From IMG/VR virus record IMGVR_UViG_3300029183_000013, positions 1 to 37,894 of that record: a stretch of 37,894 nucleotides of DNA; one strand, written 5' to 3'. Every line of letters starts with the position of its first letter. Within the stretch, counting starts at the first letter, position 1. Shown here one piece after another: positions 10,069 through 15,783 of this stretch. The notes under the pieces are model-generated. The model was not told the origin of the DNA, searched no databases, and was given only the letters and a program-made list of their open reading frames with translations. A program made the translations under genes and the position numbers. The stretch is from a virus. Taxonomy: Duplodnaviria; Caudoviricetes.

Positions 10069-11562
10069 ATGGATGAGTATATCCTGCCTGATAAGTTTTT
10101 CAAAGTTAAACCTTGGGATCACCAAAGGCTCGCTGCCAGTAGGGCCGCCCTTTCACCTGACGGCTATGGTTTCTTTTTTGAAGTTGGAGCCGGAAAAACC
10201 AAAACACTGATAGATACTCTCCGTTACAAGTATATGAAAAGCGGTGGGATTGTTAGAACATTAATATTTGGGCCGGTGATAGTGTTGGAGAATTGGAAAC
10301 GCGAGATTATATTCCACTCCAAAATAACTGAGGATAGTATTCGGATTTTGTCAGGGTCTCAGAAACAAAGGCTAAAGATTCTTGAAGAAGTTTATGATCG
10401 TGATGACGTTATTTTAATCACGAATTACGAGGTTCTTTCTCGTATGAAAGAGCTTTCAGAAAAACTTCTTTCTTGGTCGCCGGTAATTTGCGGTTGGGAC
10501 GAATCTCACAGGTGTAAAAACATCCAAGCGAAACAAACAAAGGTAGCAATAAAGTTCGCAGACACAGCCCAATACAATTATCTATTGTCTGGCACTCCCA
10601 TATTGAACTCGTTGATCGATGTTTTTTCTCAAATGCGCATTCTTGATAAGGGTCGAACATTCGGTGATTCCTTCTTCGCTTTTCGTGGACGGTATTTTTA
10701 CGACAAAAATTCAGGAATGTCTCGTGATAAATATTTTCCAGACTGGAGACCAAGACAGGGGGCAGATGAAGAAGTCAAAAGGTTGATTAAAGCTAAATTT
10801 ATGCACGTTGAAAAATCTCAGTGCTTAGATCTCCCCCCCTTAGTCAAGAAAACCATACCTATAAAATTATCCGGTGAGCAAGCAAAAGCGTATGAATCCA
10901 TGCTAAAAAATTTCATCGCATTCGTTGTAGAAAATGACCAGAATAAGGCCGCTGTCGCAGAACTCGCTCTGACAAAGGCTTTGAGGCTACAGCAGATAAC
11001 CACGGGCTTCGTAGGGATCGAAGATTTGGATTCTAAAAAATCGATTCACCGCTTCAAAAAGAATCCGAGGAAAGAAGCCTTACATGAGCTGCTATCAGAA
11101 TTGACACCCCACCATAAGGTTATTGTGTGGGCAGTATGGAAAGAAAACTATGAAGACATAAGGAGTGTATGTGAAAAGCTCAAAGTTGAATACGTTGAAG
11201 TCCATGGTTCTATCAAACAGGCCGATAAAGTTAGTGCGGTGGATACTTTCAATGGCGACCCTAGCTGTCGTGTTCTCATTGGTCATCCTGGTTCGGGTGG
11301 TATTGGAATTAATCTTGTTGCTTCTGATGTTAGCGTATTCTATTCGCGGACATTCTCCTTGGAGTATGACATACAGGCTGAAGCGCGTAATTATCGCGGC
11401 GGAAGTGAACGGCATGATAAAGTTACAAGGATAGACTTGGTGGCACCGGGCACAATTGATGAGCAAGTAGTTGAAGCACTTGCAAGCAAAAAGCAAATTG
11501 GCTATAAAGTTTTGAAAGATTTTGTTTTGCCATCTGCGGGCGGCGTCTGCGCAGACAAATAA
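10069..11562 (+). CDS. SNF2-family (SF2) helicase/ATPase
   Basis: Q motif WDHQ; Walker A EVGAGKT; DESH; LSGTPILN; GGIGINL; QAEARNYRGG. Confidence 0.92.
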   Translation: MDEYILPDKFFKVKPWDHQRLAASRAALSPDGYGFFFEVGAGKTKTLIDTLRYKYMKSGGIVRTLIFGPVIVLENWKREIIFHSKITEDSIRILSGSQKQRLKILEEVYDRDDVILITNYEVLSRMKELSEKLLSWSPVICGWDESHRCKNIQAKQTKVAIKFADTAQYNYLLSGTPILNSLIDVFSQMRILDKGRTFGDSFFAFRGRYFYDKNSGMSRDKYFPDWRPRQGADEEVKRLIKAKFMHVEKSQCLDLPPLVKKTIPIKLSGEQAKAYESMLKNFIAFVVENDQNKAAVAELALTKALRLQQITTGFVGIEDLDSKKSIHRFKKNPRKEALHELLSELTPHHKVIVWAVWKENYEDIRSVCEKLKVEYVEVHGSIKQADKVSAVDTFNGDPSCRVLIGHPGSGGIGINLVASDVSVFYSRTFSLEYDIQAEARNYRGGSERHDKVTRIDLVAPGTIDEQVVEALASKKQIGYKVLKDFVLPSAGGVCADK

Positions 11563-11632
11563 GGAGAGAGGTTGCAAACTCAATCCGAACAGTGGGGAAA
11601 TGGTGTACATGGTTCGAGTCCATGGTTCCTTG
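11561..11632 (+). ncRNA. tRNA-like element (perfect T-arm, acceptor-like stem, no valid anticodon arm)
   Basis: CATGG-TTCGAGT-CCATG T-arm at 11608-11624; AAGGAG pairs with TTCCTT; GGTT/AATC D-like stem; 72 nt. Confidence 0.45.
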
Positions 11633-11701
11633 GCCCGTAGGTGGCAGCTTTTTAATAACCAGCTAGGAGTCCGGCTTTGAGGGACGAGAAAAGGAGACAT
11701 T

Positions 11702-12112
11702 ATGAGTACGACAATCGAGGAACTAGATGAAATGTGTAGAAAGGTTAAAGAACTGGCTAACATTCGGGACCAAAAAAACGAGGAGAAAAAAGAAGCTGAA
11801 AAGACTTTCCAAATTGCACAACAGGAACTTATTACGTTACTTGAGAAACATGGAAAAACAGAATACCAAACTCCAGAGGGAAAATTCAAAATCAGCGCAA
11901 TCGAAAGGTGGAAAATAACCAATAAAGACGATGCTGTGACGTGGCTTAAGGACATTGGAAAATTTGATGACTTGGCTTCAGTCAATGCGAACACGTTCTC
12001 TGCTTTTGTTAAAGACTTAGTTCATAAGAAGCGCGAAGAAGGTGATTTTGTTTGGTGTCCACCGGGAGTTGAAGATGCAACAACAGACTACAAAAAGGTG
12101 AAAATATCATGA
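11702..12112 (+). CDS. hypothetical protein of the helicase-SSB-PolA module
   Basis: AAGGAG RBS; N-terminal coiled coil; C-terminal PPGV. Confidence 0.8.
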   Translation: MSTTIEELDEMCRKVKELANIRDQKNEEKKEAEKTFQIAQQELITLLEKHGKTEYQTPEGKFKISAIERWKITNKDDAVTWLKDIGKFDDLASVNANTFSAFVKDLVHKKREEGDFVWCPPGVEDATTDYKKVKIS

Positions 12113-12411
12113 GCAAGAAAGAAGAAAAGATCGAAATTACTCCACTACAAATTATCACAGGAGCCTACGAAAAGGCTGTGGCTGAGATCAACGATTTGTC
12201 TAAGCAGATCGAAGAAGACTATCAGAGCCGAGGTGGCGTTAGCCCCAAGGTAGCCAAGGAAATGGCAAAAGAAAGATGGATTCTGGGTGGAATTTTTATG
12301 TTGAGTAATAAGAACGCAGGAAAAGAAATAGCAGCCGAATTGACCGCAAAAATTCAAGAACAACGAGACAAAGAAAACAAGATAGACGAGGAGATAAAGA
12401 ATGCCGACTAA
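12109..12411 (+). CDS. hypothetical protein
   Basis: AAGGTG RBS; ATGA overlap. Confidence 0.75.
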   Translation: MSKKEEKIEITPLQIITGAYEKAVAEINDLSKQIEEDYQSRGGVSPKVAKEMAKERWILGGIFMLSNKNAGKEIAAELTAKIQEQRDKENKIDEEIKNAD

Positions 12412-13288
12412 TGAAATAGCAACTCAAGAAACAAAAGCCATGGCGAACCCTTTTGATATGCAAGAAGGGCAAGGATCAACCACTCTTGATTCATCTGACA
12501 TTCAGATACCCAGACTTCACCTGTTACAAGGATTGAGTGAGGGTGTCGCTGAGGGTGATTACAAACAGGGAGACATTCTCCACACCGGAGCCCAAGAAGT
12601 TCTTGGTGGACCAAAGAAACCTGTTGAAATTATCCCGTTCTTTGTCACCAAAGTTTCTCAAAAGTTCCGTACAGATGTGACACCCAAGGAATACATTCTC
12701 ACCGAACCGTTTGCAAATCAGCCGTGGGAGGAGGAGAATTATGAATGGGAGAAGAACGATGGAACAAAAATCAGTTGCAAAATCAACAACTTCAAAACCT
12801 ATATCGTGTACGCTATTATCTGCGAAGATGATTCCGGTATGGGTCTCCCCGTCTCTATCACCTTCAGAAGCTCTGCTGGTAAAGATGGACAGAAGATTGC
12901 GAGCCACTTCGCAACAGTCATGCAGTTTAACAAGCTCAAAAGTGGAACTCCGAATTTTCAACCTCAGCCACCCTGGAACTCAGTCTGGCAACTGACCAGT
13001 GAGTTAAAAAAGGGCAAGAACGAAGCCTATTTTAAATGGGTCGCCAAGAAGTCCAGAAAGCCTACGGAGATGGAGCTTTCCGAGTGTGCCCAATGGGAGG
13101 TCGCCATTGCAGCGCAGGCTCAGAAGTATGTAGAGGCTGCTGGAGACACGGAATTTCAACAATCGCCCGCCCCACAACAAACAACAGAAGCGAAGGTTGT
13201 AGAGCCTCAGAAGCCACTGAAAAATCATGCCCCTGGCGCAGAGAATCCACCGCAAGAAGAAGAAGAAATGGACGATATTCCATTCTAA
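12401..13288 (+). CDS. putative single-stranded DNA-binding protein
   Basis: Acidic tail EEEEMDDIPF like bacterial SSB C-termini; DIQIPRLHLLQ N-terminal motif; position between helicase and polymerase. Confidence 0.75.
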   Translation: MPTNEIATQETKAMANPFDMQEGQGSTTLDSSDIQIPRLHLLQGLSEGVAEGDYKQGDILHTGAQEVLGGPKKPVEIIPFFVTKVSQKFRTDVTPKEYILTEPFANQPWEEENYEWEKNDGTKISCKINNFKTYIVYAIICEDDSGMGLPVSITFRSSAGKDGQKIASHFATVMQFNKLKSGTPNFQPQPPWNSVWQLTSELKKGKNEAYFKWVAKKSRKPTEMELSECAQWEVAIAAQAQKYVEAAGDTEFQQSPAPQQTTEAKVVEPQKPLKNHAPGAENPPQEEEEMDDIPF

Positions 13289-13304
13289 TGAGAGGATAAG
13301 GGAC

Positions 13305-13362
13305 GCGGGTGCAAAAGGGGAGTTGATCGGCCCTGGTCGGTAGTACCGGCCCGCCCGCACCA
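13305..13362 (+). ncRNA. 58-nt D-armless tRNA-like element with encoded ACCA
   Basis: GCGGGTG/CGCCCGC 7-bp stem followed by ACCA; stacked GGTCG/CGGCC stem with 7-nt loop; AGGG/CCCT hairpin. Confidence 0.5.
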
Positions 13363-13373
13363 AGGAGACATTG

Positions 13374-13562
13374 ATGCCGTTTAAGTCGAAAGCCCAGAGG
13401 GATAGAATGTTGAGAATGGTCAGAGAAGGCCATGTGTCTATGGAGAAGTTTGAGGAGATGGATAAAGACACCCCCGAGAACTTGCCAGAGAGGCTAAACA
13501 TAAAACCCCGATTTGTGAAAGAAGTAAAAATACAAAAACCAATTAAACCTGCAAGCAATTGA
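13374..13562 (+). CDS. small basic phage protein (MPFKSKAQR N-terminus)
   Basis: AAGGAG RBS at 13362-13367. Confidence 0.75.
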   Translation: MPFKSKAQRDRMLRMVREGHVSMEKFEEMDKDTPENLPERLNIKPRFVKEVKIQKPIKPASN

Positions 13563-13602
13563 CATTGTTGCTTGCATCTGGTTAGGTATTTTGTCTTGTC
13601 AA
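13550..13602 (+). promoter_or_regulatory. probable promoter with palindromic operator
   Basis: TGCAAGCAA (13550-13558) and TTGCTTGCA (13568-13576) form an inverted repeat enclosing TTGACA (13559-13564); CTTGTCAA at 13595; upstream of a small basic protein and PolA. Confidence 0.55.
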
Positions 13603-13625
13603 CAACAGCAAAAACTGGAGTAAAA

Positions 13626-13904
13626 ATGACGGAAAAAGAGATTCTTTACGCTCGAATCAGTCCAAAGAACCGCATCTATGTTGAAACATTGAGTTTAAAG
13701 AATAATCAGCCAATGAGCACTTGCATCGATGAGCTGATTACTGCCCAGCGACTTGGGCGACCAATGAAACTTGAGAAAAAAGTCCCTTCTCGCCAAGAGT
13801 CTTTCGAGAGAAAGAAGAAAAACCAAAAGGAAAGGTTACAAAAACTTAAAGAGAAATATGGGACAAGAAAGAGAAAGACTGTTAGTCAGTCGGCAACTAT
13901 TTGA
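13626..13904 (+). CDS. putative DNA-binding regulator (ribbon-helix-helix-like)
   Basis: GGAG RBS; alternating N-terminal strand ILYARIS, two helices (SLKNNQPMSTCIDELI) and a basic tail; fold is an inference. Confidence 0.6.
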   Translation: MTEKEILYARISPKNRIYVETLSLKNNQPMSTCIDELITAQRLGRPMKLEKKVPSRQESFERKKKNQKERLQKLKEKYGTRKRKTVSQSATI

Positions 13905-15783
13905 AAAAGCATTAGATGACATTGCAAAAAAGAATGTCTTCGCAATAGACACTGAAACGACGGGTCTCTATCCTTTTCATGGGGACCGCGCGTTTAGTAT
14001 TGCCATCTCTATTCATGAGCGCGATTATTATTTCAACTTCAACCAATACCCCAACCTCCCCGACAGCCTAGTCTTACCCGAGACTGTTCGGGGAGACTTT
14101 CAAAGACTATTCAAAAACAACGTGTATGTGTTCATGCAGAACGCCAAGTTCGATATGCACATGATGGACCTTGATTACAGCGATGCGCGGATTCACTGTA
14201 CAGCAGTAGGACACAGGCTTCTTAACAACGAAGTAAAGTCCAAATCTCTTGCCGCTATTGGGGAATCGATAGGTATTCCAAAAGACGATACTGTTGAAAA
14301 GCTCATCAAGTCTGGAAAGCTCTATGAACCAAGGGAGCGAGAAGGAAAATCTTGGAAACAGCCACGGTATGATCTAGTCCCCTTCGATAAAATCTCCACC
14401 TACGCGATGAGAGATACCTATGTCACCTATAAGGCGGGTGTTCGACAGGTCAAATGGATAGAGAACCAAAGACAAACTATGATAGAGAAGCCGCTTGTAA
14501 ACGTCTTGAAAAACGAATCTCGTTTAACACAGACAGTTTACAAGATGGAAAAGGTGGGGGTGAAGTGTGACATTGAATTTTGTCGTGAGGGAGTGCGGAA
14601 CAGTCTTGATAAGATGGAGCGAGCTAAGTCCCGATTTAAGGAAACCACTGGCACCGATTTTGTGGACTCTCACATCGTTCTGTATAAAGCATTCAAAGAC
14701 ACTGATCTGGAAAGATTTAAAAAGACGGATAAAGGGAACTACAAGTTCGACGAAGACATCCTCAAAACCTTCACAAACCCTGGATCTGCTTGCGTCCTTG
14801 ATTACAGAGGAGCTAATACGACGTTCAATTTTCTATCCGGATTCCTATTTGGGATGGATAGCGAAGGATTTGTACACACGGACTTCGACCCTGCTGGAAC
14901 AAGAACGGGACGGTTCTCATGTCGCAATCCTAACCTTCAAAATCTCAAAAAAACCGAAACCGGGGACAATAACAGTTCCGAAATTCAGTACGATGTCATC
15001 CGAAAAGCATTAGTACCGAGAGACGGGTACATTTTTGTGATGATCGATTACGACCAAATGGAGTATCGATTATTGCTCAATTACTCAGGAGCTAGGGGCC
15101 TAATTCGCAAGGTTTTGGAGGGGCTTGACGTTCACACAGCGACAGCAGAGGTGGCAAGAGTTACCCGAAAGCAAGCAAAAACGGTGAACTTTGGAACTGT
15201 TTATGGACAAGGGACAGCCGCTCTTGCAGAAAGTCTTGGAGTTTCTAAGATGGAGGCCGTTGCAATTCAAAAAGCCATCTTTGATGCGGCTCCAGAGAAC
15301 CTAAAGTTTCTAAATGATGTCATTTCCACAGCGAAAAAGCGCAAATATCTTATAAATTGGCTCGGTAGGGTCTACCGATTCCCTAAATCTTGGATGTCAT
15401 ACAAGGCTCCAAACACCTTGATTCAAGGGGGTGCTGGAGACATCGTTAAAGTTGCAATGAATAAGTGCGACGAGTTTCTTCTAGGATACAAGTCTCGCCT
15501 GCTGCTAAACATCCACGATGAACTTGTATTTGAAATACACGAAACAGAGCTTGATATTGTGCCCGAGCTAAAGAAATTAATGGAGTTTTCTTACCCTCAC
15601 GAATACCTGCCACTGACTTGCGGAATCGACTTTTCCAGAAAGTCTTTGGCTGACAAGCGTCCATGGAAAGATTTACACTCTAACCATGTCAAAGAAACCG
15701 GAAACCACATTCAAAGAGACAGTAGTTCCACGGATAAAGGCGCTACCGAAAACCTATGTGGTGAAAACACAGGAGGTCGCTAA
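13858..15783 (+). CDS. polA: family A DNA polymerase with 3'-5' exonuclease
   Basis: ExoI DTETTG, ExoII NAKFD, ExoIII YAMRD; TGRFSCRNPNLQN; motif A DYDQMEYR; motif B RKQAKTVNFGTVYG; motif C IHDEL; start chosen at ATG 13858. Confidence 0.95.
   Translation: MGQERERLLVSRQLFEKALDDIAKKNVFAIDTETTGLYPFHGDRAFSIAISIHERDYYFNFNQYPNLPDSLVLPETVRGDFQRLFKNNVYVFMQNAKFDMHMMDLDYSDARIHCTAVGHRLLNNEVKSKSLAAIGESIGIPKDDTVEKLIKSGKLYEPREREGKSWKQPRYDLVPFDKISTYAMRDTYVTYKAGVRQVKWIENQRQTMIEKPLVNVLKNESRLTQTVYKMEKVGVKCDIEFCREGVRNSLDKMERAKSRFKETTGTDFVDSHIVLYKAFKDTDLERFKKTDKGNYKFDEDILKTFTNPGSACVLDYRGANTTFNFLSGFLFGMDSEGFVHTDFDPAGTRTGRFSCRNPNLQNLKKTETGDNNSSEIQYDVIRKALVPRDGYIFVMIDYDQMEYRLLLNYSGARGLIRKVLEGLDVHTATAEVARVTRKQAKTVNFGTVYGQGTAALAESLGVSKMEAVAIQKAIFDAAPENLKFLNDVISTAKKRKYLINWLGRVYRFPKSWMSYKAPNTLIQGGAGDIVKVAMNKCDEFLLGYKSRLLLNIHDELVFEIHETELDIVPELKKLMEFSYPHEYLPLTCGIDFSRKSLADKRPWKDLHSNHVKETGNHIQRDSSSTDKGATENLCGENTGGR

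Follow-up and report, generated by a model that had tools for sequence, protein, structure and literature searches.

Gene 32 of bacteriophage T4 encodes a single-stranded DNA-binding protein (SSB). Its mRNA is one of the non-tRNA substrates of RNase P, together with pre-4.5S RNA, phi80 M3 RNA, P4 CI RNA and P1/P7 C4 RNA (PMC11143913, PMC5499578, PMC10731613). RNase P cuts hairpins without a T loop, among them the 4.5S, M3, CI and C4 RNAs (PMC11143913, PMC5499578). The bacterial enzyme pairs the RCCA end of its substrate with the GGU of its L15 loop and prefers U at position -1 and G at +1 (PMC11143913, PMC10731613, PMC5499578). The same three sources describe model hairpin-RCCA substrates with a G-started stem, a 3' RCCA and no T loop. 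Two further systems bear on the present case. The t-elements of plant mitochondria are degenerate tRNA-like structures at mRNA junctions, proposed as cis-signals for RNase P or RNase Z, that keep a T loop and serve a protein-only RNase P (PMC1920247, PMC5499578). The mascRNA and menRNA are small tRNA-like units, eukaryotic and nearly cloverleaf with a T arm, that tRNA enzymes excise from a longer transcript and that are not aminoacylated (PMC9976931).

The element that we describe here spans 58 nt (13305..13362) in a window of 37,894 bases that constitutes an entire virus record. A sequence-only reading of this DNA had pointed it out, with letters and coordinates that were all correct. The element shares its phage context with the non-tRNA substrates of RNase P, its SSB-like neighbor with the gene 32 message and its G-started stem, 3' RCCA and lack of a T loop with the model hairpins. 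It differs from known RNase P substrates in that it has no sequence or Rfam similarity to them and no antisense target that we could find, lies between protein-coding genes of a replication operon, and has an interior of 32 to 173 nt. Unlike t-elements, it lacks the T loop in six of its seven forms (G020 alone has one), encodes its CCA and belongs to a bacteriophage. It is similar in size to mascRNA and menRNA, but the mascRNA/menRNA model did not match it, and the score of the G020 form, 17.4 bits, fell short of the 42.5 cut-off. We found no description of this family in the literature searched, which took in few subscription papers.

The element in its genomic setting

The window has the gene content of a tailed phage, with D5 primase, SNF2 helicase, gp33-like and gp34-like genes and a family A polymerase; the structural gene block lies on the strand opposite to the replication genes. 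The element starts 16 nt after the stop codon of the gp34-like gene and ends 11 nt before the MPFKS gene (Table 1). The gp34-like protein matches Pfam PF23977 (Pam3_Gp34; E 2e-17), ends in an acidic tail (DDIPF) and has an RPA OB fold as its top, weak, fold match (E 0.007); tail and fold match make it a plausible SSB. Two helices are predicted for the MPFKS protein, which matched no Pfam, PHROG or NCBIfam family, returned nothing at Z >= 5 in a fold search and yielded no functional clue in an Atlas search. Since the annotated phage collection contained no relative by DNA or by SSB, capsid or MPFKS protein, the system comes with neither a cultured model nor a host. A TTGAC promoter-like hexamer with inverted repeats, recognized by eye at window 13559-13610 and at L023:5125-5160, precedes a small putative DNA-binding gene and the polymerase and is possibly an autoregulated operator. 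The polymerase ORFs of two relatives, G001 (L245:530-3442) and L115 (L115:4992-7790), run to 970 and 932 aa and contain a large in-frame insertion that may be an intein.

Table 1. Features in and around the element, in window positions
Feature	Position	Strand	Basis
Upstream gp34-like gene, predicted single-strand DNA-binding protein	12401..13288	+	Pfam, acidic tail, weak OB-fold match
Leader, 16 nt, predicted unpaired	13289..13304	+	centroid fold
Predicted RNase P cut site	between C13304 and G13305	+	inferred
Acceptor stem, 5' strand	13305..13311	+	letters, RNAfold, covariation in relatives
CAAA linker	13312-15	+	sequence
AGGG/CCCT side hairpin, 4 bp, 11-nt loop	13316-34	+	fold
Helix stacked on acceptor, 5-7 bp	13335..13351	+	fold
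Acceptor stem, 3' strand	13352-58	+	sequence
Discriminator A13359 and encoded CCA (ACCA)	13359-62	+	sequence
AAGGAG, Shine-Dalgarno-like, of the next gene	13362-67	+	sequence
Downstream MPFKS gene, 62 aa	13374..13562	+	ATG at 13374

RNAfold reproduced the fold described in the sequence-only reading, apart from the stacked helix, which is present but predicted with 7 bp and a 3-nt loop rather than with 5 bp and a 7-nt loop. Acceptor pair probabilities were 0.94-1.0 for the element alone and 0.72-0.77 with 150 nt of context on each side. By itself, the folding of the window element is within chance and unremarkable (z -1.35, with 18 of 200 shuffles equally good). A loose descriptor (7 bp, NCCA and any stacked 5-bp helix) matched once in the real window and zero to four times in each of eight shuffled windows. 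A strict one with the 7+5 geometry and 7-nt loop, composed with the element already known, matched once in the real window and in none of 100 shuffled windows. Folding energy was mixed between strands, the plus strand being better in five of seven elements, and was not used as evidence. Antisense shadow ORFs over the window element had no match in relatives. The element's sequence lies within one DNA contig of a sequencing run that may be the source of the record; a search of sequencing runs turned up no RNA run carrying it. In one DNA run a loose end occurs at 13329; it is presumably amplification primer plus adapter and was set aside as an amplification artefact.

Distribution and conservation among relatives

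Relatives were gathered by SSB, polymerase and capsid protein searches, the last contributing the best 80 of 165 records. Of these 80, 50 were searched for the MPFKS gene (present in 5) and 40 for the polymerase (present in 12); four were already among the relatives, and 26 short contigs were screened by the RNA model only. The comparison set comprises 27 PolA-bearing phages, including the window and excluding the duplicates L113 and L351. In the slot behind the SSB-like gene, seven of the 27 have a stem of 6-8 bp ending in purine-CCA (RCCA), six have a plain hairpin with no CCA at its end, and the remaining 14 have neither. The plain hairpins are GC-rich, several with U runs; that of L119 was tried as a member and, having no CCA end, is counted among them. 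Homologous loci thus keep the stem and CCA foreseen by the sequence-only reading in 7 of 27 cases and lack them in 20, and the element is dispensable.

The seven forms measure 58 nt in the window, 75 in L023, 54 in L116 and L331, 52 in L232 (G001), 173 in L349 (G020) and 32 in L353 (G032), and their place is downstream of the SSB gene itself or of the short Lys-rich gene that comes after it. Protein searches, with no RNA pattern, brought in L023, L116, L331, L349 and L353; L232 alone was found by a pattern that included CACCA, and its contig begins 24 nt upstream of the element, its SSB not being visible. In the polymerase tree the carriers occupy four places, six of them within the starred clade of 15 rows. 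The window's own 3-row clade includes L026, which is among its two nearest relatives and has no element. The MPFKS gene follows the element in five of the seven carriers and occurs without it in L001, L026, L111, L115, L119 and L332-L335.

Pattern searches contributed little else. A DNA pattern from the element's interior retrieved no viral contigs, and a scan of a genome collection gave a single, irrelevant match. An acceptor pattern gave 80 loci, mainly inside ORFs of GC-rich genomes, which were not counted as members; they also took in real tRNAs and L023's own contig. In most of the 119 loci of a CACCA+MPFKS pattern, the match was to the end of an upstream coding sequence. That pattern added L232, recovered L023 and gave a group (L123:2455-2505, also in L130 and L174) in which 51 nt with seven G-C pairs and ACCA precede an MPFKS-type gene. 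This group was excluded because its phage is unrelated and its element overlaps the end of an ORF, and it represents convergence or chance. G010:125-172, antisense within a structural gene, was rejected as a chance look-alike.

We aligned six elements (window, L023, L116, L232, L331 and L349). Pairs 1-6 are paired in 36 of 36 cells; G1-C72 and G3-C70 are invariant. The compensatory changes for which the sequence-only reading called appear on both sides of acceptor pairs 2 (C-G, U.G or G-C), 4 (G-C, A-U or G.U) and 5 (G-C, A-U or C-G). The discriminator is A in five of these six and G in L331. With L353 added, A73 occurs in six of seven, G+1 paired to C72 likewise (L353 starts U-A), and RCCA in all seven, L232 having been selected by its CACCA; base -1 is C in the window and U in all six relatives. 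In shuffled gaps, a G1-C72 stem of 6 bp with RCCA arose in 14 (window), 10 (L023), 13 (L116), 8 (L232), 3 (L331) and 43 (L349) of 5000 trials, by descriptors likewise composed after the elements were known. In four of six relative records scanned, the element is the sole stem with RCCA outside long ORFs, while G013 has two and G020 three further ones; the scan masked the window element owing to its antisense shadow ORFs. On this comparative evidence the window element is real and under selection, its conservation in relatives being the decisive support.

What lies between the ends is free to vary, with interiors of 32, 52-58, 75 or 173 nt and no common motif. The linker and side hairpin (13312..13334) are not conserved in sequence, and model R1, built from L116, L232 and L331, has no match there. 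These three form an alignable subtype with a nearly constant 5' hairpin loop, and covariation within their three rows did not exceed shuffles (122/500). R1 left the window, L023 and G020 elements undetected at E 0.5, retrieved from 58 records only its three training sequences and one 9.5-bit match, and found nothing in 47 further records (one repeated). Because R1 misses these elements the forms may be convergent, and common descent of all of them is unproven.

The sequence-only reading's mimic of acceptor stem and CCA is therefore borne out by the relatives, but its 7+5 geometry of acceptor and T arm is not: the helix length varies, L023 having a longer stacked arm, L353 a plain hairpin and L116, L232 and L331 a 3-bp helix preceded by a bulged A. 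Its fusion of element and ribosome-binding site, in which the last A of the CCA starts AAGGAG, holds in the window and is not conserved elsewhere. The distance from CCA to start codon is 11, 16, 4, 17, 16 and 16 nt in six elements, and the trailers of L116, L349 and L353 have no Shine-Dalgarno sequence.

Several relatives show peculiarities of their own at this junction. At L116:4585-4591 an ATG stands 4 nt behind the CCA with no Shine-Dalgarno sequence in the trailer; at L349:514-532 a two-codon start-stop frame begins 3 nt behind the CCA; and at L353:782-796 the gene behind the element likewise has no trailer Shine-Dalgarno sequence. Short Lys/Ala-rich ORFs (~20-60 aa) with strong ribosome-binding sites lie directly behind the SSB gene in L116, L119, L331, L353, L109, L112 and L113 and are absent from the window.

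Kinship with tRNA

The window element has the 7-bp acceptor stem, discriminator and CCA of a tRNA. It is missing a D arm with G18G19, an anticodon arm with a 7-nt loop and a UUCRA T loop, whose absence the sequence-only reading had correctly recorded. The ARAGORN and Rfam checks that it advised gave no tRNA or family call on the window element; ARAGORN missed all six elements scanned (loci or window, that of G001 included), Rfam matched no family to the elements scanned, and tRNA detection controls were positive in 14 of 14. A tmRNA is ruled out, pair 3 being G3-C70 rather than G3.U70 and neither program making such a call, and a resemblance to the SRP Alu domain or 5S rRNA was dropped for want of an Rfam match. 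The proposed likeness to tRNA-Leu ends proved sound: the first seven and last eleven bases of the element equal those of some phage tRNA-Leu genes (L060, L064 and L093) and also of a phage tRNA-Val gene (L028). The element differs from tRNA-Leu in having no D loop, anticodon arm, variable arm or T loop and in its unfixed discriminator.

The 173-nt form (L349:341-513, equivalent to G020:C1:20633-20805) is a tRNA shell with a 7-bp acceptor, U8 A9, a short D arm without G18G19, a canonical T arm and ACCA. Its anticodon stem is drawn out into a rod of ~110 nt that replaces the anticodon loop. It folds with z -2.89, escapes both ARAGORN and Rfam, and can be regarded as a natural tRNA-scaffold RNA. 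Because this shell occupies the same slot, the element family was likely derived from a tRNA gene.

Candidate functions

We hold, with a little better than even confidence, that the element is a cutting mark for host RNase P, likely tRNA-derived, that punctuates the mRNA of the replication operon. This was one option of the sequence-only reading, an mRNA processing signal, and the stem and RCCA that are kept make it the best one. The kept features match the rule for bacterial RNase P and not a synthetase identity, with the proviso that this host's RNase P may differ. That fit to RNase P rather than LeuRS, with no + strand terminator found in 11400-14000 around the slot, leads us to place the cut before G13305. 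The plain GC-rich hairpins that six other relatives hold in the slot suggest that it marks a transcript boundary. A transcript of the helicase, gp33 and SSB genes would read through the slot; RNase P would pair with the RCCA and cut, so that the SSB message would end in a tail of 16 unprotected nt, the MPFKS message behind it would begin with a base-paired 5' end, and the two messages would decay separately. In L023, L116 and L331 a U-rich trailer follows the CCA, where a second cut could free a small RNA with a CCA end; the equivalent cut in the window would land in the ribosome-binding site of the next gene.

Several observations stand against the RNase P reading. The window has C rather than the preferred U at -1, L353 begins with U-A, 20 of the 27 relatives have no element, and the fixed G3-C70 exceeds the known needs of RNase P. 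The G-2 U-1 of L023 and L331 can pair with RCC, and leader pairing of this kind brakes cleavage (PMC10731613).

If the cutting-mark reading is true, the element would be a natural example of a protein-coding phage operon that host RNase P punctuates in the manner of tRNAs. One slot would hold a series from a 173-nt tRNA shell to a 32-nt bare hairpin-RCCA, showing which parts of a tRNA selection retains after loss of decoding and offering minimal RNase P substrates of natural origin. Because ARAGORN and Rfam miss them, signals of this kind may be common yet absent from annotations.

The main rival, to which we assign a low but appreciable probability, is that RNase P and 3' trimming release an abundant small CCA-ended RNA, co-expressed with the SSB, as the working product, either a decoy for defense enzymes that attack CCA ends or a tRNA-like scaffold carrying a payload arm. 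CCA is encoded in all seven forms, the U-rich trailers resemble the RNase E sites that lie behind E. coli tRNAs (PMC2190699), and G020 retains its full, well-folding shell with the long arm. The near-constant 5' loop of L116, L232 and L331 and the G1-C72 and G3-C70 fixed in six elements would also fit a working RNA. Against it, the interior shares no motif across its range of lengths, and no target or partner was found; release would moreover cost the window's next gene, because the ribosome-binding site of that gene starts at the last A of the CCA. A tentative and rather unlikely elaboration is that a tRNA gene has turned into a modular scaffold, with stem and RCCA as RNase P handle and interior payloads, from a bare loop to the 110-nt rod, being swapped. 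Its CCA-ended RNA, proposed to reach SSB levels, would soak up defenses that attack tRNA 3' ends.

It is improbable that the stem is left uncut at its 5' side and gives the SSB message a tRNA-like 3' end to block exonucleases, a substitute for a terminator hairpin that does not stop transcription. The plain hairpins in the same slot in 6 of 27 relatives would suit this role, as would stems that start just 8-24 nt after a stop codon in the elements compared; a roadblock, however, requires no CCA, G1-C72 or -1 pyrimidine, yet all are kept. Decaying remnants of tRNA genes, or unrelated GC-rich hairpins without current function, could account for the patchy distribution, the weak folding of the window, L116, L232 and L331 elements (z -1.1 to -2.0) and the lack of detected homology between subtypes. 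This reading, quite improbable, is already weakened: between element-bearing phages with SSB proteins 24-58% identical, the ends persist through paired changes while neither interior nor flanks can be aligned, and decay would not leave just stem and CCA intact.

The chance is very slight that the element is an RNase P-matured antisense regulator like P1/P7 C4 or P4 CI, its loops pairing with phage mRNA. Those RNAs, too, lack a T loop and are cut by RNase P, and the loops here are variable, but Rfam gave no match to C4 or CI, the longest exact interior match in the phage's own record was at chance level in all seven records (by a search that misses short or G.U-containing targets), and no integrase or repressor cassette was recognized among the 28 proteins scanned. 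Equally slight is the chance of a minihelix charged by a Leu- or Val-type host synthetase as an aminoacyl donor or EF-Tu sink, the leucine version of which the sequence-only reading had raised: the ends shared with phage tRNA-Leu and tRNA-Val and A73 in six of seven favor it, but E. coli LeuRS needs A73 and the D/T-loop contacts G18:U55, G19-C56 and U54:A58 (PMC9976931), for which the window element has no bases in the absence of G18G19 and T loop, and is repelled by the G73 found in L331, while ValRS would find no anticodon and AlaRS no G3.U70.

Other tRNA-like stretches were seen outside the slot. L051:2501-2572, in an unrelated provirus and outside long ORFs, is a 72-nt acceptor with a 5-bp/7-nt-loop arm and ACCA that draws no ARAGORN call. 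Two weak tRNA-model matches are G040:C1:39893-39942, with a T arm and CCA end but no clear 5' half, and G020:C1:14469-14574, an atypical long tRNA-like RNA.
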